Positions 1 to 8,840 are shown, counted from the first letter of the stretch. The stretch is DNA of 32,000 bases from Trichodesmium erythraeum IMS101 (GCF_000014265.1 NC_008312.1:4680001-4712000), one strand, 5' to 3'. Made by a program: numbers and translations. The notes: a model not told the origin generated them from the letters alone.

Positions 1-2
1 TT

Positions 3-1199
3 GACCCTATATTTCTTACCGCAATGCCCCAAAGAATTTTTGGCATTATGGCTAACTATACTTTGTTAGCTATTCCCTACTTTATTTTTATGGGGGGAAT
101 GTTAGAAAAATCTGGCATTGCAGAACAACTACTGGAAACAATAGGAATATTGTTTGGTCGAGTTAGAGGTGGTTTAGCTCTGGCAGTTGTTCTTGTCGGC
201 GCTCTTCTAGCTGCTACTACTGGTGTTGTTGCTGCTACGGTAGTCGCAATGGGGTTAATTTCTTTACCTATTATGTTGCGCTATGGGTATAATAAAGAGT
301 TAGCTACAGGTGTAATTGTAGCATCGGGAACTTTAGGCCAGATTATTCCCCCTAGTGTGGTTTTAGTAGTTTTGGCAGACCAACTGGGAATTTCTGTTGG
401 TGATCTATTTATTGGTTCTATTTTGCCTGGTCTAATAATGGCAGGAACTTTTGCTCTTCATGTTTTGATTGTTTCTTTTATACGACCAGATTTAGCACCT
501 GCTTTACCAGCAGAGGTACGAAATATTGGAGGGAAAAATCTCTGGATGAGGGTGCTAACCGTAATGTTTCCACCATTAATCTTAATTTTATTAGTTTTAG
601 GTAGTATATTTTTTGGTATTGCTACACCTACAGAAGCTGGTGCTGTGGGATGTGTGGGAGCGATCGCTCTTGCTATAGCTAAAGGTAAGTTTAGTTGGAC
701 CTCTTTAAGAAAAGTATGTGATGTTACCCTCCGCACAACTACTATGGTAATGTTTATACTTTTGGGTTCCACTGCGTTTAGTTTAGTTTTTCGAGGAGTC
801 GAAGGCGATCGCTTTATGTTTGATTTGCTTTTTAATCTTCCTGGTGGTACGACTGGTTTTTTGATTGTCAGTATGGCAATTGTTTTTTTTCTTGGTTTTT
901 TTATTGACTTTTTTGAGATTGCTTTTATTGTTGTACCTTTATTTGTACCTGTTGCACAACAACTTGGTATTGACCTAGTTTGGTATGGTGTGATCTTAGG
1001 GGCTAATCTTCAAGCATCTTTTTTAACGCCTCCCTTTGGCTTTGCCCTATTTTACTTACGAGGTGTAGCACCTTCAGAAGTTACTACTGGTCAAATATAT
1101 AGAGGTGCTATTCAGTTCATCTTACTTCAGTTATTGGTTTTAGTACTGATTATTACTTTTCCTAGTATTGTTAATTTTCTACCCTCATTGAGTGGATAA
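3..1199 (+). CDS. dctM: TRAP transporter large permease subunit (DctM family), 5'-truncated by the window edge
   Basis: The frame-3 ORF is open from the first bases of the window (DPIFLTA precedes the listed Met). It is a strongly hydrophobic multi-TM protein with DctM-like motifs (IPYFIFMG, GGLALAVV, LGQIIPPS, PPFGFALFYLRG). Confidence 0.85.
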   Translation, partial: DPIFLTAMPQRIFGIMANYTLLAIPYFIFMGGMLEKSGIAEQLLETIGILFGRVRGGLALAVVLVGALLAATTGVVAATVVAMGLISLPIMLRYGYNKELATGVIVASGTLGQIIPPSVVLVVLADQLGISVGDLFIGSILPGLIMAGTFALHVLIVSFIRPDLAPALPAEVRNIGGKNLWMRVLTVMFPPLILILLVLGSIFFGIATPTEAGAVGCVGAIALAIAKGKFSWTSLRKVCDVTLRTTTMVMFILLGSTAFSLVFRGVEGDRFMFDLLFNLPGGTTGFLIVSMAIVFFLGFFIDFFEIAFIVVPLFVPVAQQLGIDLVWYGVILGANLQASFLTPPFGFALFYLRGVAPSEVTTGQIYRGAIQFILLQLLVLVLIITFPSIVNFLPSLSG

Positions 1200-1226
1200 A
1201 GATTTGATACCAAAATTCTCATGGAT

Positions 1227-1252
1227 AATGTATTTAATAAATACATTTTTTT
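1227..1252 (+). terminator. Possible weak intrinsic terminator after dctM
   Basis: Inverted repeat AATGTATT / AATACATT with a short loop, followed directly by a T-run (TTTTTTT), 28 nt after the dctM stop. The stem is AT-rich with only one G:C pair, so it is weak. Confidence 0.35.
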
Positions 1253-1377
1253 ACCAGATTTAATATAAATTTAAGTATAAAGATAAGAAGAATAAATATT
1301 TATAACCTTTGGTCATAATTGCTAAATAATGATTACTGCTAAACTTAGTATAAAAAATAAGTAAAACTTTACCTCGT

Positions 1378-1710
1378 GTATTTTGACTAACTTAAGACTT
1401 GAAGCTATTGCTCCCAAATAAATAATTAAAAATTTTTCTTCACTATTGCTTATATCAAGAAGTTTAATATATACTGAACTCTCAGTTTTAATTTTAGTCT
1501 TGAGGGTTTACTTCTGATTACTATAAAAGTTAGTATTAAAAATGATTGAAAATTAATTGGGTATTTTTACTAACTCAAGACTTAAAGCTATTGGTAACCC
1601 AATAATTAAAAAAATTTCTCAACTATTGCATAGATGAAGAAATTTAATATATACTAACTATCAACTTCAATTAATAGGAAGTTATTAAAAATAAGTCTAG
1701 TTCAACTTGG
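1378..1710 (+). repeat. Tandem duplication of the region upstream of the small ORF (copy 1 about 1378-1560, copy 2 about 1561-1710)
   Basis: Both copies read GTATTTT(G/T)ACTAAC(T/C)(T/C)AAGACTT(G/A)AAGCTATTG ... ACTATTGC(T/A)T ... AA(G/A)TTTAATATATACT ... AAGTTA(G)TATTAAAAAT ... TTGG in the same order. Copy 2 lacks about 33 nt that copy 1 has. Confidence 0.7.
1626..1655 (+). promoter_or_regulatory. Putative sigma70-type promoter for the small ORF (TTGCAT ... TATACT). An equivalent TTGCTT ... TATACT is at 1446-1475 in repeat copy 1
   Basis: -35-like TTGCAT (1626-1631) and -10-like TATACT (1650-1655), or the overlapping TATATA, with 16-18 nt spacing. The same arrangement is conserved in both tandem copies. 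It lies about 65 nt upstream of the ATG at 1721. Confidence 0.3.
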
Positions 1711-1720
1711 AGATATTAGT

Positions 1721-1894
1721 ATGAGTATGTCAAAAAAAATTGATGTTCAGCCAGTTCGGTCTAGTAAAATTCAGGTAGAGGTAAAAGATATTCTACAAAA
1801 TTCACTAGGAAAAAACTCACAAACAGGATTAAATTTTGACGCAGATGGTGGCGATCGTCACTTTGACTCAGATGGTGGTGATCGTCATCACTAA
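1721..1894 (+). CDS. Small 57-aa peptide, MSMSKKIDVQPVRSSKIQVEVKDILQNSLGKNSQTGLNFDADGGDRHFDSDGGDRHH (candidate RiPP-type precursor). Not in the supplied ORF track because it is under 60 aa
   Basis: ATG at 1721 is preceded by GGAG (1709-1712). The ORF is locally GC-richer than the flanking AT-rich spacer. The C-terminus is a 27-nt direct repeat (1835-1861 and 1862-1888) encoding FDADGGDRH and FDSDGGDRH. Two of the three nucleotide differences between repeats are synonymous (GGC/GGT, CAC/CAT). Confidence 0.5.
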   Translation: MSMSKKIDVQPVRSSKIQVEVKDILQNSLGKNSQTGLNFDADGGDRHFDSDGGDRHH

Positions 1895-2775
1895 GAGTTC
1901 AATATTTAAGTATTTGAATGTTTGTTTTAGATGCTTAGGGGGTTAAGAGTTACCTATCATTAGTATCTCTAGCCATGTTAGTCTGAACATGACAAATAAA
2001 AAAAATATTATGGTAAAAACTTTCCCCTTTTATATCTAAATATGTATATATCAAATATTTTTGAGCGTTTTTTACATGCAATAATAGATAATTTTATATA
2101 ATTCAGAGAATAAGCGTTGAAAAAAAACTATTTAACATTTAACTTAAGAGATTAATTAAGATATGTAAATGTAATAGATTGTAAGGAATTTTATTTAAGC
2201 ACCTAAATAAAAAAAGTAACCTTCCCTAATTTTATGTAAGCCTTACATGAGAAGGAATTCATCTAAAAAAGTGTATGATTAATCTTGTATTCTTACTTGA
2301 TTTTACCTGTTCCTAATAAAGCTTTGAAATATAAGTGTTTATTCTTTTTAGATAGTATTTATCAAATATATAAAGTGCATAAATATTCTATTTTAGGTAA
2401 TAGATAACAGGACAAGTAGAGAAGAGTAAAATAATATTATACAGGGGATTCTATCTTTGTGAGGTAAACTCTAGGGCAAGAAATATTTAATTATTAATAT
2501 ATATACTTCATATACTTAGAATATACTGTATCATTAATATCAGAATATCTATATACAAGAAAACTATTATTTAAGATAAGTAAATATTAAGTTTAAAAAA
2601 TTAAGAATTCCTAAATAAACCCATATATCAATGAATTAAGATTTAGTTGAGTTCAAATGATATGATAGACAAAGTAAAAATCAGCTTTGACTAATCTATG
2701 ATGTGCTAGTAAAAATCCTTAACTAAACTTAATAAGACCATAAACTTCAAAAATTAATAGAAAAAATTCTTAATT

Positions 2776-3933
2776 ATGTCGTATCTAACACATCTAATAC
2801 AACCATTAAAGCAAGAAGAATTTTTAGAAAACAACTGGACTAAGAAAGCGATCGCTATCTCCAATAAAGGAGAGAAAGATTTTACAGACCTATTTTCATG
2901 GGAAAAACTTAACTACCTACTAAACTTTCATCAAATAAAATATCCCGATGTGCGACTTGCATTTGATGGAAAAGTTCTGGAGGAAAAAGAAAATAGAAAT
3001 TTTACTCAATGGTGCGAAAAAGGAGCAACCTTAATTCTAGATCAAATTCATAGAAGGATTCCAGAAGTTGCTATATTTACTTCAAAACTCAGCTACGAAT
3101 TAGGATACCCAACTCAAGTCAATGCTTATTGTTCTTGGTCTAGTAAAAAAGGATTTTCTCCTCACTACGACACTCACGATGTATTTATTTTGCAGGTAGA
3201 AGGAAATAAACAATGGTATGTGTATAATGACACCTTCAAATATCCATTGCCAAACCAAAAATCATCTTCTTTTACACCACCTGAAAAAGAAGCATATTTG
3301 AGTTGTATTTTACATCCAGGAGATGTACTTTATATACCTCGTGGACACTGGCATTATGCAGTGACAAAAGAGGAACCATCTATTCATCTTACTTTAGGTA
3401 TTCACTCTTCAACAGGTGTGGATTTATTGGAATGGTTAATTGGTCAATTACAATACAGAGAAGAATGGAGAACAAGTCTAGCGTTAAGAATAGATGATAC
3501 TTCTTTTAATGTTAGTGTAGAAAATTTAATTAAAGACTTAAAAGAGTATATAAATAATCACAATATTAGCGAAGAATATAATAATTACTTGGATGGTTTA
3601 GCAAAACCTTTTGAGCAGTATAATTTACCTTATCAAGCTGGATTTCATATTTTTCATAGGGATATCGATACTAAATTCAAAGTGTCTCAGTTTCAACGTT
3701 TAAAAATTTCCAAAATGGCTGATGATGATGGATATAAAATTTTAGTTTCTGGTAAAGAGGTATCTATTCGAGGAGTACCAGAATATTTAGTGAAAAATTT
3801 ATTTAGCCGAGAAACATTTACTGGAAAAGATATCATAAATTTATTACCTGACTATGACTGGGAAATAGATATTATGCCCATGTTATCAAAGCTAGTTAAT
3901 GAAAGAGTTATTTTTGTAGAATCAGGGCTGTAA
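2776..3933 (+). CDS. JmjC / cupin-4 family Fe(II)- and 2-oxoglutarate-dependent oxygenase (ribosomal-oxygenase YcfD/RoxA-like fold)
   Basis: 385-aa ORF. It has an HxD motif (H130-Y-D132 in SPHYDTHDVFILQVEGNKQW) and a distal His in YIPRGHWHYA about 62 residues later. That is the facial-triad spacing and context typical of cupin_4/JmjC ribosomal oxygenases. A winged-helix-like C-terminal extension follows. Confidence 0.8.
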   Translation: MSYLTHLIQPLKQEEFLENNWTKKAIAISNKGEKDFTDLFSWEKLNYLLNFHQIKYPDVRLAFDGKVLEEKENRNFTQWCEKGATLILDQIHRRIPEVAIFTSKLSYELGYPTQVNAYCSWSSKKGFSPHYDTHDVFILQVEGNKQWYVYNDTFKYPLPNQKSSSFTPPEKEAYLSCILHPGDVLYIPRGHWHYAVTKEEPSIHLTLGIHSSTGVDLLEWLIGQLQYREEWRTSLALRIDDTSFNVSVENLIKDLKEYINNHNISEEYNNYLDGLAKPFEQYNLPYQAGFHIFHRDIDTKFKVSQFQRLKISKMADDDGYKILVSGKEVSIRGVPEYLVKNLFSRETFTGKDIINLLPDYDWEIDIMPMLSKLVNERVIFVESGL

Positions 3934-4029
3934 ATATGAATATATTTTTTTATTGATGTTGATTAAGGAGTTAAATGTTATGAAAATCAAATTGTAATTA
4001 ATACTCAATTAGTATGTATCTGAATAGTA

Positions 4030-4182
4030 AGATAATATATCGTTTAAAACTCATTTATTAGAGAAAAATTGAGAGGTAAATTACTTATGAATTTATTACT
4101 TAAACATAACTGATAAATAGATACTATGGCTATATTATCAAAGCCAGTAACTGAAATTAGTGAAAAAGTTATTTTTATATAA
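4030..4182 (+). pseudogene. Decayed tandem duplicate of the last ~50 codons of the JmjC gene
   Basis: 4086-4182 aligns by eye to 3828-3933: AT(A/G)AATTTATTAC...ACTG..AAATAGATA.TATG.C.AT.TTATCAAAGC.AGT.A..GAAA...AGTTATTTTT.TA.AA. The residual ORF MAILSKPVTEISEKVIFI (4126-4182) matches the JmjC C-terminus MPMLSKLVNERVIFV. Stop codons lie upstream in that frame. Confidence 0.6.
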
Positions 4183-4201
4183 TTAAAATAGGAGTTTAAA
4201 G

Positions 4202-5209
4202 ATGAATAAGTTTTTTTGTTCTAGCGCTTGCCGAGAAGCAGATGAAGACATTATTGGAAGTGGTACGAATTATTCAGTTTATGTATTGATAGAATGTCCT
4301 TACCCTTGGAAACATAATGCTTTCGAGTCTCGTTTTTTACCAAAAAACTTAGAGATGTTGATGGCAAAAGTGAAAAGGGATAAATTGTCTCTCAGATTTT
4401 TACTGATTACTCAAAATCAAAATTATAGGCAAAATAACAGAAAGATTTTAATTTATGAAAAAAATAAATCTTCATTTATCAATAGTTATAAAAAATATGA
4501 GTTTGACGTAGATCATCCTGAAAAAATAGCTCCAATTATTCAAAAATACTTAGCAGGAGATAATTTAGATACTAACACTCAAAATCCTCAAATAAGAGAT
4601 CTATTAGTTTGTACTCATGGTAGTCACGATAAGTGTTGTGCTAAATATGGTAATCCGTTTTATGCGGAAGCTAAAAAAACTATTTCTGAATTGGGTTTAA
4701 AAAATACAAGAATTTGGAAAACAAGTCACTTTGGTGGTCATAGGTTTGCACCTACTATGATTAGCTTTCCTGATGGTAGATATTATGGATTACTTAATCG
4801 AGAATCTTTTCAAACAATTTTGCTACAAGCCGGGAATATAAAATTATTAAGCCAAGTTTATCGAGGTTGGAGTATTTTACCAACTTCTATTCAAGTGTTG
4901 GAAAGAGAACTTATCTTCCGCCACGGTTGGGAATGGTTTGAGTATAAAATTAATCTTTTACATCTGGATATTAATTTCGATAAAACATTAGTTCAAACTC
5001 AATTAGCTGTGCTTAAACCAGATGGTTATCAATATATTTGTCAAGCTAAATTAGTTAAAGATGAAAGTAAAACTATCTATATTAAAGGATCTTGTGATGC
5101 ATCTCACGAGTCCGAATTTATAAAGTATGCTGTCAGTAATCTTAGCTTCATAATTGAGAAGAAAACTTCTGAAAAAGTGTTAATAAGTTCTCATACAAAG
5201 GTTAGTTGA
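4202..5209 (+). CDS. Sucrase/ferredoxin-like (Suc_Fer-like) thioredoxin-fold protein, Apd1/Aim32-type bis-His [2Fe-2S] candidate
   Basis: GGAG (4191-4194) lies 7 nt before the ATG. The N-terminus has GT..YVLIECPYPW, typical of the family. It has C137-x8-C146 (CTHGSHDKCC) and H176-FGG-H180 (HxGGH), which is the Cys2His2 ligand pattern described for Apd1/Aim32. Confidence 0.75.
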   Translation: MNKFFCSSACREADEDIIGSGTNYSVYVLIECPYPWKHNAFESRFLPKNLEMLMAKVKRDKLSLRFLLITQNQNYRQNNRKILIYEKNKSSFINSYKKYEFDVDHPEKIAPIIQKYLAGDNLDTNTQNPQIRDLLVCTHGSHDKCCAKYGNPFYAEAKKTISELGLKNTRIWKTSHFGGHRFAPTMISFPDGRYYGLLNRESFQTILLQAGNIKLLSQVYRGWSILPTSIQVLERELIFRHGWEWFEYKINLLHLDINFDKTLVQTQLAVLKPDGYQYICQAKLVKDESKTIYIKGSCDASHESEFIKYAVSNLSFIIEKKTSEKVLISSHTKVS

Positions 5210-5402
5210 AAACATGAATTGATTTGGTATTTCTCAAAACTAAAATTGCTGACTAGTATCTTTAATACCTATTATTTGATAAATTTATAATCATTCACAA
5301 AAGAGACTATTATCAAAAATTTTAGTTACTAATTTTCTCAAGTTTTTTTTGAATAAAAAGCTTTACCTATAAATTCTTAGGATAAAGTAAGTTAAGGAGT
5401 AT

Positions 5403-5811
5403 ATGATTGAACCTTTAGGAGCTAAAGTCCTCAATCTATCTAAATGCTCTCCTGATTTTAACCCTATTGAATTATGGTGGTTACAACTAAAGTCTTTTAT
5501 AAGCAGTTTTTATCCCACTACAACAGAAATGGTTGATACGGTCATTTCTGTTGCATTTTAGTTAAGGGTACCTTGTCAAAAAATATGTCAAAAACATCAT
5601 CAAACTCTTATTTAGTAAAGGTTTTACATGTAATCAACTTGTTCCATGACACATGACATATTCAGCTTTAATCCTTTTTTAGCTATAGCTTTGTATTTCC
5701 CTCGCTCCTACTAGCAACTACAGGTATTTTCTCGGTAAAAAATGTCAAAGTACCATTAATATTCTGCATTTAAAAAACTTGTTTATTAAGTGCTGTTATT
5801 GTAACTCATAA
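5403..5811 (+). pseudogene. IS630-family (Tc1/mariner-like DDE) transposase C-terminal remnant, interrupted
   Basis: 5403-5561 translates to ...SKCSPDFNPIELWWLQLKSFI... (the YSPDLNPIE..W..LK motif around the catalytic E/D). 5758-5811 translates to NILHLKNLFIKCCYCNS*, the typical cyanobacterial IS630 C-terminal tail. There is no N-terminal or DDE core, and the two pieces are in different frames. Confidence 0.65.
5562..5759. mobile_element. MITE-like ~198-bp insertion with imperfect terminal inverted repeats, splitting the IS630 remnant
   Basis: The left end TTAAGGGTACCTTGTCA (5562-5578) matches the reverse complement of the right end TTAATGGTACTTTGACA (5743-5759) at 14 of 17 positions. The interior is non-coding. 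It sits exactly between the two transposase-homologous pieces. Confidence 0.4.
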
Positions 5812-5892
5812 CAATAAGAAGTGGTGTATAAATTTAAAATATATTAGTTGTTTGATTAGGCAAATTGAAGATTTTTTTTATTAAAGATAAAT

Positions 5893-6351
5893 CTATAAAT
5901 TCTGAACATCAGGTAAATTAAAGAGCATAAATTGGTGCGGTATTCCTAAAAAATTAAGTTGTTGACCAGTGCTTATAAAACCTATTTTTTCATAAAACTT
6001 AGATGCACTCAAACGAGACATTACTCTCAAAGATTTTAATTGTTTTTCTTTGGCAATTTCAATGATTTTTTGAATTAAAGCTGTGCCTACTCCCTGAGAT
6101 TGAAATTTAGGTAAAACAGCAACATATGAAATACTTCCTAGTTCTGTAGATAATTGTCGCAGTCTAGCCGAACCAATAATTTGTTCCTCATAAACAGCAA
6201 TAAAATGTAGAGAAGAATCATCATCGTCAGACTCATCTTTTTCTGTTCCTCTTTCCATATCTATCGGTTTTCTTAAAACTACCCAACGTTGATAATACAT
6301 ATTTTCTTTTTCTTGTTTGTTTTGAATTCGGCTAATCTTAAACTTTAACAT
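5893..6351 (-). CDS. GNAT-family N-acetyltransferase
   Basis: 152-aa ORF with acetyl-CoA-binding motif A (VLPKFQSQGVGTALIQKIIEIAKE) followed by FYEKIGF. Confidence 0.85.
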   Translation of the reverse strand: MLKFKISRIQNKQEKENMYYQRWVVLRKPIDMERGTEKDESDDDDSSLHFIAVYEEQIIGSARLRQLSTELGSISYVAVLPKFQSQGVGTALIQKIIEIAKEKQLKSLRVMSRLSASKFYEKIGFISTGQQLNFLGIPHQFMLFNLPDVQNL

Positions 6352-6644
6352 TTTTCAATTTTAATTAATTCAAGGATCTCTATTTGATTTAATCTAGATT
6401 TTTATTTATGGGTTGCTAAATACAATTTGATAACTAATAAAGCAATCACTGAAAATACCCATAATGAAATACAATTCAGAATAATGAATCATTAATATCT
6501 TATTAATAAAAATAGACCACTTTTATACAATTAAATATAATGTCTATAAATTATAGATGGAATAAAAAGCAGTAAAGTAATATAATTAAATAATTCCATA
6601 ACTATTAGCTACAATTAACCCCATCTCTGAGTTTTAAGTAGAAA

Positions 6645-7367
6645 CTACTTAGACCAAGCTGGATGAGATAATATAGACGCAAACATTCGTACTCCACGGA
6701 GTAAATTAGAAAGAGGTAGATGACCTTTTGGAGCACTTAAATTCCAAGTAAATTCATTAGGGTATCTACTCCAAGTATTGCCATTTTTCCAGCCAATTTT
6801 TGGTAGAAACTTATCCCAATTTTTCCCTGATCCCAACCAAATTTCTCTCTGTACGGAATAGCCAAATTTACCTTCTGAATAAATTAACCACATGTTATTA
6901 ATAGTTTTCATATCTGGAATTGGAATACTATCTACTTCTGAAAAATAAAGCCACTTTCTTTGTATCGCTGCTTCTCCTACTAACTCACACAATTTTTGCA
7001 TTGTTAATTTATCAGCTTCTAAAAAATCTTGATGGGCTAATTTGACTTGTAAATGACTGTAGTCGATATTAGATGCTGAATTGATTGGTACAACTCCTAA
7101 GGGAAAGTTTTTTTGTATAAATTCATCAACTTTAGATGACTTAATTTGACGTAAAACTTGATATATTTTTCCCTTAACTATAGTTGGCGAATCTAATTTT
7201 TTCTTCTGCAAAAACTCCATGAGAATTTCTACACCTTCATCTCCTATTTTTGCTAAATTAGGAATTACCTGCAACTGTTTTTTTTCAGAACCAGATTCTA
7301 GTTGATACTCTAGTTCAGATATATTAAATGAAGGGTATTTTGTAAAGTTAGTTTGTGATTCTGTCAT
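6645..7367 (-). CDS. gun4: GUN4 domain protein (Mg-chelatase activator / porphyrin-binding, Ycf53-like)
   Basis: The C-terminal domain has the GUN4 signature: DSIPIPDMKTINNMWLIYSEGKFGYSVQREIW...GWKNGNTW...FTWNLSAPKGHLP. The N-terminal domain is helical. Confidence 0.85.
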   Translation of the reverse strand: MTESQTNFTKYPSFNISELEYQLESGSEKKQLQVIPNLAKIGDEGVEILMEFLQKKKLDSPTIVKGKIYQVLRQIKSSKVDEFIQKNFPLGVVPINSASNIDYSHLQVKLAHQDFLEADKLTMQKLCELVGEAAIQRKWLYFSEVDSIPIPDMKTINNMWLIYSEGKFGYSVQREIWLGSGKNWDKFLPKIGWKNGNTWSRYPNEFTWNLSAPKGHLPLSNLLRGVRMFASILSHPAWSK

Positions 7368-7372
7368 TTCAT

Positions 7373-7421
7373 TTATTAGTTATTAGTTATTAGTTATTAG
7401 TTATTAGTTATCAGTTATTAG
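7373..7421. repeat. Heptanucleotide microsatellite (TTATTAG)x7, sixth unit TTATCAG
   Basis: Seven contiguous 7-nt units read directly from the sequence, starting 6 nt upstream (on the minus strand) of the gun4 start codon. Confidence 0.95.
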
Positions 7422-7559
7422 TATATCTAGGAGTCATAATTATATTCATAATTCTGTAGAACCTGTCAGTCAATTAATGGGTTTCAGAATTCTACAAAAT
7501 TTGATTATTTACTAGTATTGAATTAGTAGTCATTCCCCTATCTCCTACTAAGATTAATT

Positions 7560-8840
7560 CTGACGACTCCTTGTTCAATAATATTTTGACATCCTCCCCG
7601 GCTATTAGGCATGGGGTAGGGGGTTATTGTAAACCGAAACTCCAATACAGTTTGACTTTTAATTGACTTCTGCAATTTTTGGTCGTGAGGACGAAACTTG
7701 CACTTGCCTTAGACTTACCTCCACGTCCGTTTTTTTCTGGTGACTGCCTGCCTGCGACTAATATATCTACTGCTGCATTTTGATCACGTTCGTGTTTAGC
7801 ACCACAGTTGAGAGACTCCCATTCACGAATTAATAAATCTAATTTTCCTCCTTTAACATCAAATACAGCTAGAGTAAATTTGAAATGTTAGTTCTCAACG
7901 TCGAATTACTCTATGACTGCGGCTATATTTTTTTGCCTTTCCTTCTAACAAGGTTTCGGCATTACTTCATAACCATTCATTAGAGACCCAAACCTCTTGG
8001 GGACGGGTTACGCTTTTGACCACTAAAGAAACATATAATACCTCTACAAAAATCAATTGTTTGGTTTTCACTAATTATTTTAGTAGATAATTTATCCATA
8101 AAATCTGTTTTTATGTTCTTTTGTTTCCCATGAAATTTAGCAATTTTAACTTGTGCATTTTTATATTGTTTAAAACCCCCTACTTTTTTAGATAAATACT
8201 TACCTAACACGTTACACAGATCCTATGAAAGAGGGCACTTACTGATTAATCTTTTTCTTTAAGAGTTTTTGTGCATGAATTTTATTACTTTTACTCAAAG
8301 TAGCAAAAGTTTTAATACCTAAATAATTATCTACTTAATCATCAGTTTTAGGAATGTTTTCTAGATTAATTTATCTTACAAAACTTAATAAATATCTATT
8401 AGTAGAGTATTTAATAATACTTACTGATGATACTTAATCCTTACAACTTTCTCAACCAAACTACTCTTAATTTCCAAACTTTAAGCTATATTAGGAAATT
8501 TATGCTGAATAACTTTCAACCCTGACCGGACCTAACAGTTTGCATATAACTTCAAAGTTTTAAATTTAGGAGATTTAACAGGTTGACTTTTAGTTGATCT
8601 AAAAAAGTTTTGATAGACTTGGTTTAAATCATTTACACATTACTGCAATGGTATAGTAGAAACTTATGATAACTATTTTCTATCTTGAGTCTTTTTAGCT
8701 TGAGTAATAAACTGTTTTTCTAGTGTAGCGGGGGAGTTAACAGGCTTCTTCTCTCCTAATAATTACTTTTTATAATCATAAAGCTAGACTATCATTCAAC
8801 ACAAAATGGACACAGCTATTATGAGCTTTGCACTATCAGT
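7560..8840 (-). pseudogene. tnpB: Degraded IS200/IS605-family tnpB (OrfB/IS1341-type RNA-guided nuclease) element, with many stops and frameshifts
   Basis: Minus-strand pieces match TnpB in order. N-terminal: ...VNDLNQVYQNFF..STKSQPVKSPKFKT... Middle: ...LGIKTFATLSKSNKIHAQKLLKKK... and KNAQVKIAKFHGKQKNIKTDFMDKLSTKIISENQTI (ORF 7980-8210). C-terminal: LEGKAKKYSRSHRVI... and REWESLNCGAKHERDQNAAVDIL, the zinc-finger/RuvC-III region. The frame ends near 7624. There is no tnpA. Confidence 0.7.

Follow-up and report, generated by a model that had tools for sequence, protein, structure and literature searches.

A small repeat-core peptide gene and the gene of a JmjC-type oxygenase downstream of it are strictly linked in filamentous cyanobacteria, and we consider it fairly probable that they belong to a conserved peptide-modification cassette in which the oxygenase acts on the peptide, most likely by hydroxylating aspartate. 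The cassette was followed up from a 32,000-nucleotide stretch of Trichodesmium erythraeum IMS101 (GCF_000014265.1, NC_008312.1:4680001-4712000; the window), where an original prediction, made from the sequence alone, had proposed at 1378-5209 a possibly new peptide-modification system resembling those that make RiPPs, peptides produced by the ribosome and modified after translation. The three same-strand genes that it listed, for the peptide, the oxygenase and a Suc_Fer-like thioredoxin-like protein, and the convergent GNAT acetyltransferase gene that follows them, were all found where they had been placed (Table 1). These genes, their catalytic and ligand residues, the strict two-way linkage of peptide and oxygenase and the leader, spacer and core architecture of the peptide are directly seen.

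What follows is the order of events that we infer, including the peptide as substrate, aspartate as its target, the kind of oxidation and what the accessory genes and the product do. The small gene would give a precursor-like peptide consisting of an N-terminal recognition segment, probably a beta-strand, a spacer of ~14 residues and one to three acidic nine-residue cores built on the unit N-x-D-x-D-G-x-D. The downstream oxygenase, an Fe(II)/2-oxoglutarate (2OG) enzyme of the ribosomal oxygenase (ROX) type, would bind the recognition segment, probably via a C-terminal domain resembling the RiPP recognition element (RRE), and oxidise a core residue, most likely by C3 (beta) hydroxylation of at least one conserved Asp. 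This would yield a beta-hydroxy-Asp-rich acidic peptide, with metal binding (Ca2+ or Fe3+) as its likely property. The Suc_Fer-like and GNAT proteins would be frequent but dispensable, the former possibly giving redox support or a follow-up oxidation and the latter possibly an acetylation.

One genome per species (GTDB) was scanned with the oxygenase alignment, which gave 342 relatives, and the best 80 of these, 53-90% identical to the window oxygenase, were kept with 10-kb flanks. These best 80 loci include members of Trichodesmium, Dapis, Okeania, Microcoleus, Tychonema, Moorena, Symploca, Caldora, Coleofasciculus, Microseira, Lyngbya, Scytonema, Brasilonema, Stigonema, Iningainema, Iphinoe, Rivularia and Leptolyngbya JSC-1. 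In all 75 genome loci whose upstream DNA reaches 600 nt or more, a peptide gene lies upstream of the oxygenase on the same strand (tblastn and a hidden Markov model, HMM, of the peptide). The HMM is positive in 82 of 85 loci; in the three where it fails, the oxygenase lies no more than 550 nt from the end of a contig. In the reverse direction, when metagenome contigs were scanned by the leader motif alone, an oxygenase was found directly downstream in 15/15 loci. The co-occurrence for which the original prediction had proposed to look is therefore two-way, and peptide and JmjC oxygenase are tightly coupled in Oscillatoriales, Nostocales and Leptolyngbya JSC-1; as is general for RiPPs, the candidate modifying enzyme is encoded beside the precursor and co-occurs with it.

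The rest of the neighbourhood is kept less strictly. A Suc_Fer-like gene is found downstream in 61 of the 62 loci having at least 3.5 kb of downstream DNA, and GNAT in 57 of these 62 informative loci (56 with the order and convergent orientation of the window; absent from 5), with a median gap of 40 bp between the two. Clustering of the open reading frames (ORFs) of the 80 loci within 10 kb on either side showed only peptide, JmjC, Suc_Fer-like and GNAT to be common across genera. DctM, GUN4 and cytidylyltransferase neighbours are kept only in the Trichodesmium/Okeania/Dapis clade, and a link of the cassette to the DctQM transporter or to GUN4 was rejected on that ground. The window locus itself recurs in several marine metagenome contigs, and its oxygenase is 100% identical to a T. 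erythraeum 21-75 protein.

The window peptide (MSMSKKIDVQPVRSSKIQVEVKDILQNSLGKNSQTGLNFDADGGDRHFDSDGGDRHH) is the sole match of the peptide HMM in the window (8.9e-29), and its two cores are a 27-nt tandem duplication (1835-1860 vs 1862-1887, 92% identical). In an alignment of 25 diverse peptides (A2), the leader consensus R-x-S-K-I-Q-[VI]-E-[VI]-K-[ED]-I is nearly invariant across orders; it is followed by ~14 residues of free sequence and then by L-N-x-D-[AS]-D-G-[GS]-D, in which D40 is invariant and D42, G43 and D45 nearly so. Of 66 unique peptides, 64 place the first core Asp 24-25 aa after the anchor Ser; in the window peptide the distance is 25. Core copies follow a strict nine-residue period, with one copy in 44 unique sequences, two in 13 and three in 9. 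In a survey of 69 unique tails, the cores of Trichodesmium, Okeania and Dapis read DGGDR[NH], while most genera have DADGSD[VL][TS]NE. The peptide has no signal sequence, and Cys and aromatic residues are almost absent from the family, so cross-linking chemistry is unlikely. The view of the peptide as a repeat-core precursor is hence borne out: its leader is conserved, its spacing is fixed and its cores, one to three in number, are variable. RiPP precursors are generally expected to be short, with the core less conserved than the leader.

Could this segment instead be an untranslated cis-regulatory leader or a small RNA for the oxygenase operon? The non-coding features conserved around the ORF would suit such an element (a promoter word and a dyad, a hairpin in the 5' leader and, past the ORF, one that resembles a terminator), and searches of Pfam and NCBIfam with the peptide gave no family, its database homologues being named 'hypothetical protein'. 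Several features nevertheless speak for translation. It is the amino-acid sequence that is kept: within the conserved peptide blocks the proportion of synonymous differences is 0.70, near saturation, against 0.15 for nonsynonymous ones, a measure that is somewhat circular because the blocks are anchored on the amino-acid motif. Changes in repeat number come in 27-nt units and preserve the reading frame, a GGAGA Shine-Dalgarno sequence stands correctly spaced 5' of the ATG in nearly all loci, the peptide HMM gives E-values down to 1e-20 between different orders, and the whole window is without an Rfam match at the gathering threshold. We hold an RNA element of this kind to be exceedingly improbable; on the strength of its conservation the small ORF is a real coding sequence under selection, precursor-like in build.

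The oxygenase matches JmjC_2 (PF08007; E 1.4e-28) and Cupin_8 (8e-9) in Pfam and has no above-cut-off match in NCBIfam. Among 18 aligned homologues, H130, D132, H193 and K145 never vary; the intact HxD...H of this enzyme had been noted from the sequence, as had the CX8C and HxGGH of the Suc_Fer-like protein, and the residues of all these motifs proved invariant among homologues. H130, D132 and H193 align with the HYD...H motif of NO66 (HMMER alignment), and K145 falls, by our own residue count along the alignment, at what we take to be the position of the NO66 2OG-binding lysine. Sequence matches in the PDB (phmmer) are to NO66 (2e-17), Bacillus subtilis YxbC (4e-16), MINA53 (1e-15) and YcfD (5e-8), the last spanning oxygenase residues 12-212 only.

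An AlphaFold2 (AF2) model of the oxygenase, built from the 18-sequence alignment, is of medium confidence (predicted local distance difference test, pLDDT, 64; predicted template modelling score, pTM, 0.54). With it, Foldseek finds full-length NO66, MINA53 and YcfD (E 1e-16 to 1e-12; ~18-22% identity) in alignments of more than 400 columns, where the high root-mean-square deviation reflects domain placement, and there are weaker matches to FIH and JMJD5. In this medium-confidence model the three-domain ROX architecture is present (JmjC, helical dimerisation and C-terminal winged-helix-like domains). The C-terminal ~90 residues are modelled as three to four strands (299-332) followed by three helices (336-375), with pLDDT of about 67-81. 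RRE-like folds fused to PF08007 JmjC domains have been described in RiPP-like contexts (PMC12710340), and the strands-then-helices order of the modelled domain appears to agree with the arrangement by which such folds are defined.

The fold and domain architecture shared with the ROX enzymes, YcfD included, and the name 'ribosomal protein L16 Arg81 hydroxylase', which JGI gives to many homologues, would also fit a housekeeping YcfD/RoxA-type uL16 Arg hydroxylase beside which the small ORF is merely syntenic. We regard this as very unlikely. The similarity to YcfD is weak and ranks below that to NO66 and YxbC; the original placement among YcfD/RoxA, NO66 and MINA53 holds for fold and family, while an orthologue of YcfD is not what the matches indicate. 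The two-way linkage with the peptide extends across orders that share no other synteny, Trichodesmium relatives carry a second paralogue in another context, and distant clades keep an upstream motif-bearing Asp-rich protein, one distant relative lying in a lanthipeptide cluster. Moreover, no Dolichospermum or Nodularia occurs among the 120 best oxygenase matches, though many of them carry Suc_Fer-like homologues. Genomic context points to the upstream peptide, and not a ribosomal protein, as the substrate of the window oxygenase.

Deeper relatives of the oxygenase were collected by a HMMER search of 1.84 billion representatives, in which 461 clusters passed E <= 1e-30; many of these are full length and 28-47% identical to the window enzyme (Table 1). 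In the hypersaline cyanobacterium, peptide, oxygenase, Suc_Fer-like protein, a PKMT-like methyltransferase and GNAT follow one another on one strand; a TonB-dependent receptor adjoins them and gives a weak hint of a metal-chelate role. The three genes that precede the Arthrospira oxygenase all encode NRIQ[IM][DE]I[ET]D[LI] and an Asp/Tyr-rich end of the DRD[FY]NYD type (e.g. DRDFNYDNDRG), and two of the products have Sec-type signal peptides, so that this locus looks like a secreted-substrate version of the system. The upstream proteins of the L111 metagenomic clade end in extremely Asp-rich tails. In the lanthipeptide cluster (L112) the order is LanB N-terminal part, C39 ABC transporter, a 449-aa protein of no assigned function, JmjC, LanB C-terminal part and LanC. 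Upstream of the Trichodesmium sp. MO_231.B1 paralogue, at a distance of 3 kb, a Nif11-like protein of 152 aa is encoded that ends in a Pro-rich repeat tail; the cluster of the paralogue also has Okeania SIO2F4 and Dapis members, the Trichodesmium locus alone having been examined.

Wherever a partner is visible in these loci, a strand-like IQ[VI]E[VI]x[DE][IL] motif is followed by an Asp-rich C-terminal tail, which speaks for Asp being the target and for recognition through the motif. The Arg-His pair of the window cores, which had motivated the original prediction, is limited to the Trichodesmium/Okeania/Dapis clade, and D-x-D-G-x-D alone is conserved; Arg or His as target was therefore rejected, neither being conserved across the family, and Arg/His hydroxylation is unlikely as the family chemistry. 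The residue two before the first core Asp is a poor candidate as well because it varies, being usually Asn and also His, Asp, Gly, Gln or Ser. JmjC hydroxylases typically act on C3 of Asn, Asp, His, Arg and Lys (PMC11575548), and beta-hydroxylation of a core Asp is hence the most economical prediction and most likely the reaction.

Several observations weigh against a peptide-modifying cassette of this kind. The chemistry is throughout something that we infer, and the residues that the characterised ROX enzymes are known to hydroxylate in ribosomal proteins are Arg or His, not Asp. The clustering of ORFs around the 80 loci revealed neither a leader protease nor an exporter nor a stand-alone RRE gene that is conserved. 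The C-terminal domain of the oxygenase has no Pfam PqqD match (E up to 10), a PDB profile search with it returned only a chance affibody match, and its structure is taken from a model of medium overall confidence (pLDDT 64). Three peptides from Trichodesmium metagenome-assembled genomes have degenerate cores behind an intact leader. The Argonema (47%) and Phormidium ETS-05 (44%) oxygenases have no such peptide nearby, and in T. erythraeum peptide and oxygenase, 881 bp apart, are probably under separate promoters. Finally, full-length Suc_Fer-like proteins of ~51% identity stand alone in Dolichospermum flos-aquae (CP051206.1) and Nodularia (JADEWH010000006.1), so membership of this gene in the cassette is not secure.

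Since neither a protease nor an exporter is conserved, the product may never be released as a classical natural product. Together with the missing signal sequence, this suits a peptide that stays in the cell as an uncleaved partner of the oxygenase: a pseudo-substrate or regulator, a donor or buffer of Fe2+ or Ca2+, or a signalling substrate whose hydroxylation state would report O2, 2-oxoglutarate or iron, much as in the case of FIH and HIF, the Fe-S protein serving as redox input. The cores resemble metal-binding loops of the DxDxDG type, 2OG is the central carbon/nitrogen signal in cyanobacteria, and tight regulation is suggested by a conserved promoter region belonging to the peptide gene itself, by a dyad and by a structured 5' leader. 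Variable core number and fast-diverging cores behind a conserved leader are, by contrast, typical of precursor peptides; related clades join the same motif to secreted or lipoprotein-type proteins, and family members occur in genuine RiPP clusters. An intracellular partner is in our judgement unlikely.

The reading that we prefer remains the modification of the peptide by the oxygenase. The cassette would then work like a minimal RiPP system, made of a precursor and a leader-dependent maturase, without the textbook protease and exporter. A bolder proposal, which we think rather unlikely, is that it represents a new class of ribosomal beta-hydroxy-Asp-rich metal-binding peptides, which would amount to gene-encoded metallophores or calcium-binding peptides of Trichodesmium and most mat-forming filamentous cyanobacteria, with ROX-type JmjC proteins as the sole class-defining maturases and a bis-His Fe-S protein as a novel sort of 2OG-oxygenase partner, or else an intracellular hydroxylation switch responding to O2, 2OG or iron. 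Of the original proposal of a possibly new peptide-modification system, the linked pair of precursor-like peptide and oxygenase is retained, and the Arg/His chemistry and the dedicated Fe-S partner are not.

The Suc_Fer-like protein matches PF06999 (E 1.2e-32), and C137-x8-C146 and H176-F-G-G-H180 are invariant in 18 sequences (A3). C6, C145 and C298 are further invariant cysteines, and there is a C-terminal alpha+beta domain of ~110 aa that resembles cystatin/NTF2-like folds only weakly; a second metal or redox site, suggested by the extra Cys and this domain, is possible. A PDB profile search with the alignment gave no match, an AF2 model (pLDDT 68) found nothing in Foldseek at E <= 1e-3 and only weak cystatin/NTF2-like and NDUFV2-like matches beyond it, Pfam searched with the C-terminal domain at E up to 10 returned nothing meaningful, and NCBIfam gave the protein no above-cut-off match. 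Within 8 kb of the stand-alone genes of Dolichospermum and Nodularia there is no peptide, oxygenase or GNAT, and the gene therefore has a function independent of the peptide and oxygenase pair. Conversely, peptide, oxygenase and GNAT occur without it in Rivularia and at one metagenome locus (L104). The dedicated partnership at first proposed for this protein is thus contradicted from both sides. A functional tie can still be argued, as cyanobacteria keep very little synteny over such distances and the gene is present in 61/62 loci and in the clade with 45% identity. The Suc_Fer-like protein is best described, from its distribution, as a frequent accessory of the cassette; re-reduction of the oxygenase iron, or a second oxidation as in the SmaO/SmaX pathway, would be speculative roles suggested by analogy. 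The GNAT protein has the expected fold (Acetyltransf_10 and Acetyltransf_1, E about 1e-18), and its best NCBIfam matches are far under the cut-offs, so that no specific equivalog was reached; it is a small, generic accessory with a possible role in acetylation.

The region 5' of the peptide gene is tandemly duplicated with a period of ~183 bp (1330-1493 vs 1515-1672; 77% over 164 nt, blastn), and the start at 1378 given in the original prediction falls in the first copy, after which there is no ORF. The second copy holds a promoter-like TTGCAT (1626-1631), a TATATA (1648-1653) and a conserved word, TTTCTCAACTATTGC, which is kept upstream of the peptide gene in other genera; these elements presumably act as a promoter. 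A scan of 1200-6500 for consensus promoters and terminators gave counts equal to those of shuffled sequences and is uninformative in such AT-rich DNA. Non-coding elements kept across genera stand ~60-135 nt upstream of the peptide ATG (L025-L085; 1613-1655 in the window). They comprise the word TCAACTATTGCAT, a dyad, TTGACTT-N5-7-AAGTCAA, which overlaps a -10-like TACAGT as a candidate operator, a hairpin, and the motif AATGGGTGAYTACT a little 5' of the Shine-Dalgarno sequence. The 5' leader hairpin is present at the equivalent place in 68 unique loci (mean z -1.95 vs mononucleotide shuffles), with stems that differ between genera and are always self-complementary; the leaders were folded sequence by sequence, the MAFFT alignment being too poor in the hairpin region for a covariation test.

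The long AT-rich spacer between peptide and oxygenase genes noted for the window is real and clade-specific, since spacers in other genera are mostly about 95-250 bp. Its first ~145 and last ~240 nt are conserved in Trichodesmium, Dapis and Okeania (blastn to L006-L022), and folding of the conserved 3' spacer segment after the peptide gene gave z -0.98, which is not significant. The last 27 nt (2749-2775; AATTAATAGAAAAAATTCTTAATT) are the counterpart of an element that elsewhere has a fixed position before the oxygenase start, namely an imperfect dyad ATTGAKAA-N3-5-TTMTCAA (TTGA[GT]AA ... TT[CA]TCAA) directly 5' of the oxygenase ATG; its motif counts at fixed positions are 40/80 and 31/80 loci vs about 2 expected, and a related word lies upstream of the peptide promoter. 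In other genera (L025-L084) a GC-rich terminator-like hairpin with a T-run stands between the peptide stop and the oxygenase start, and its stems show compensatory changes between genera that keep complementarity. This layout fits a precursor gene that is transcribed in excess of the enzyme gene, and a hairpin between precursor and enzyme genes resembles many RiPP operons. Co-transcription in T. erythraeum is doubtful, and the functional linkage does not depend on it.

The spacer between the oxygenase and Suc_Fer-like genes (268 bp) contains a decayed copy of the oxygenase 3' end (69% over 172 nt, blastn). In Okeania and Dapis a unit of ~260-300 bp from the same end is repeated up to five times (L016 6678-7919, L010 6129-6789, L013 4600-5410), and such repetition explains the long spacers of the Trichodesmium/Okeania/Dapis clade. 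A 52-aa DDE_3 transposase remnant lies between the Suc_Fer-like and GNAT genes (5403-5561, + strand), with a hairpin of 15-bp stem at 5521-5553, and a 76-aa OrfB_IS605-like fragment is found at 7980-8210 (- strand); both mobile-element remnants enlarge intergenic distances in T. erythraeum.

Table 1. Features of the T. erythraeum locus (window coordinates) and of loci with deeper relatives of the oxygenase (coordinates of the respective locus; percentages are identity to the window oxygenase)
Feature	Position	Strand	Evidence or remarks
Upstream tandem duplication of peptide-gene region	1330-1672	+	direct repeats D1, D2, D7-D9; blastn
5' leader hairpin AACTTC-N9-GAAGTT	1663-1683	+	folding of family 5' leaders
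Shine-Dalgarno GGAGA, 3' of leader hairpin	1709-1713	+	
Precursor-like peptide gene, 57 aa	1721-1894	+	ORF, 27-nt repeat, family HMM
Leader motif S15-I24 (SKIQVEVKDI) of peptide	1763-1792	+	family alignment A2
Core 1 of peptide, NFDADGGDRH	1832-1861	+	
Core 2 of peptide, FDSDGGDRHH	1862-1891	+	
Peptide-oxygenase spacer, AT-rich, 881 bp, 23-28% GC	1895-2775	+	
ROX-type JmjC_2/Cupin_8 2OG oxygenase, 385 aa	2776-3933	+	Pfam, invariant residues, PDB sequence matches, AF2, Foldseek
Oxygenase metal triad H130, D132, H193	3163-3165, 3169-3171, 3352-3354	+	
Oxygenase Lys145, 2OG-binding by alignment	3208-3210	+	
Decayed copy of oxygenase 3' end (3760-3922)	4012-4183	+	blastn; repeats D6, D13
Suc_Fer-like thioredoxin-like protein, 335 aa	4202-5209	+	PF06999, invariant columns in A3, AF2
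Suc_Fer-like candidate [2Fe-2S] ligands C137, C146	4610-4612, 4637-4639	+	
Suc_Fer-like candidate [2Fe-2S] ligands H176, H180	4727-4729, 4739-4741	+	
Small GNAT acetyltransferase, 152 aa, convergent with Suc_Fer-like	5893-6351	-	Pfam
Hypersaline cyanobacterium (L113, JGI Ga0136447_1002731), 45%	639-8210		45-aa peptide SRIEIEVSDE...GFDKDGDD upstream
Arthrospira platensis NIES-39 (L108, AP011615.1), 41%	3804-7164		oxygenase preceded by three genes, 444, 107 and 85 aa
Metagenomic clade (L111), 38%			preceded by two small proteins that bear a signal peptide or lipobox and SIQVTDLD or GIDVIELD
JmjC_2 protein (L112, P0278), 34%, full length	1-8016		inside class I lanthipeptide cluster
Trichodesmium sp. 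MO_231.B1 paralogue (L105), 41%, 422 aa	6001-7269		between two large TPR-glycosyltransferase genes
Rivularia locus (L080)			no Suc_Fer-like gene
Dolichospermum flos-aquae (L086) and Nodularia (L088) loci			stand-alone Suc_Fer-like gene

If the proposed modification takes place, ROX-type JmjC proteins would be the founding enzymes of a peptide-modification family, beyond the hydroxylation of ribosomal proteins. Its members occur in no fewer than 80 sequenced filamentous cyanobacterial species, among them the N2 fixer Trichodesmium, which is of global importance, and the predicted hydroxy-Asp acidic peptide would be a candidate gene-encoded ligand of Ca2+ or Fe3+, with a bearing on iron and calcium handling by Trichodesmium and mat-forming cyanobacteria. 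The cassette also gives a biological context to the poorly understood bacterial Suc_Fer-like (Apd1-type) Fe-S proteins. Two to four genes and a 50-aa substrate, together with a clear recognition motif and a fixed spacer, make for a small and therefore directly testable system. In the literature searched, neither the cassette, nor the D-x-D-G-x-D peptide family, nor the pairing with a Suc_Fer-like protein is described.

Among known systems, the ROX enzymes (YcfD/RoxA, NO66/RIOX1 and MINA53/RIOX2) are like the window oxygenase in PF08007, the HxD...H motif, the 2OG Lys and the full-length fold, and the expected chemistry is likewise C3 hydroxylation of a polypeptide side chain. Their substrates are uL16 Arg81, uL2 His216 and uL15 His39. 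The window enzyme is only ~18-22% identical to them, is coupled to a small peptide gene and not to ribosomal-protein genes, and has Asp, not Arg or His, as its conserved candidate targets. The Suc_Fer-like protein shares PF06999, C-x8-C and H-x3-H (HFGGH) with Apd1 and Aim32, whose bis-Cys/bis-His ligand set was reportedly described by Stegmaier and colleagues in 2019, and which published papers name thioredoxin-like ferredoxins or 2Fe-2S proteins. It differs from them in being bacterial, in its additional C-terminal domain and extra invariant Cys, and in occurring without the oxygenase.

The product side has parallels of its own. The core N-x-D-x-D-G-x-D shares the D/N-x-D-x-D-G spacing of EF-hand-like loops, but cores such as NVDADGSDVTNE do not match the canonical EF-hand pattern D-x-[DNS]-x-[DNS]-G-x-[ILV]-[DENQST]-x-x-[DE]. 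Against the 12-residue EF-hand, positions 3, 5, 6 and 12 fit, position 1 is N, 8 is D and 9 is V, so that positions 8 and 9 are swapped in character relative to the EF-hand loop. Beta-hydroxy-Asp is a known Fe(III) ligand in the cyanochelins, siderophores made in cyanobacteria by non-ribosomal peptide synthetases, and published papers link cyanochelins with hydroxyaspartate. The window peptide is unlike them ribosomal, and metal binding is predicted for it.

The closest precedents for the chemistry are RiPP tailoring enzymes. SmaO is an Fe/2OG enzyme that converts Asp to beta-hydroxy-Asp in a RiPP, and the SmaO/SmaX pathway leads onward to aminomalonate, with another iron enzyme, encoded next to the first, performing a further oxidation (PMC12186529). 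These two enzymes may be analogous to the pair of JmjC and Fe-S proteins, although JmjC and cupin are terms absent from PMC12186529, the second enzyme is one with an HD domain and the cluster has a PCAT transporter. The statement of the original prediction that it knew of no described RiPP class built on a JmjC hydroxylase is out of date, since CzlI of curacozole is a JmjC tailoring hydroxylase that converts Phe to Tyr (PMC11575548) and BipG of biphenomycin is a JmjC tailoring enzyme that hydroxylates Orn (PMC12707348). These are, by their descriptions, Fe/2OG JmjC enzymes that act on ribosomal precursors in a manner dependent on flanking or leader sequence (PMC11575548, PMC12707348, PMC12710340), and the 34% homologue of the window enzyme in the lanthipeptide cluster adds to the likeness. 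CzlI and BipG are, however, accessory to other maturases (azole-forming, MNIO, radical SAM) and are accompanied by proteases and transporters, whereas here JmjC is the sole enzyme always found with the peptide, the repeats are acidic (D-x-D-G-x-D) and there is no linked protease or transporter. JmjC tailoring of peptides and Asp hydroxylation by Fe/2OG enzymes in RiPPs are thus already known, and this cassette varies on them.

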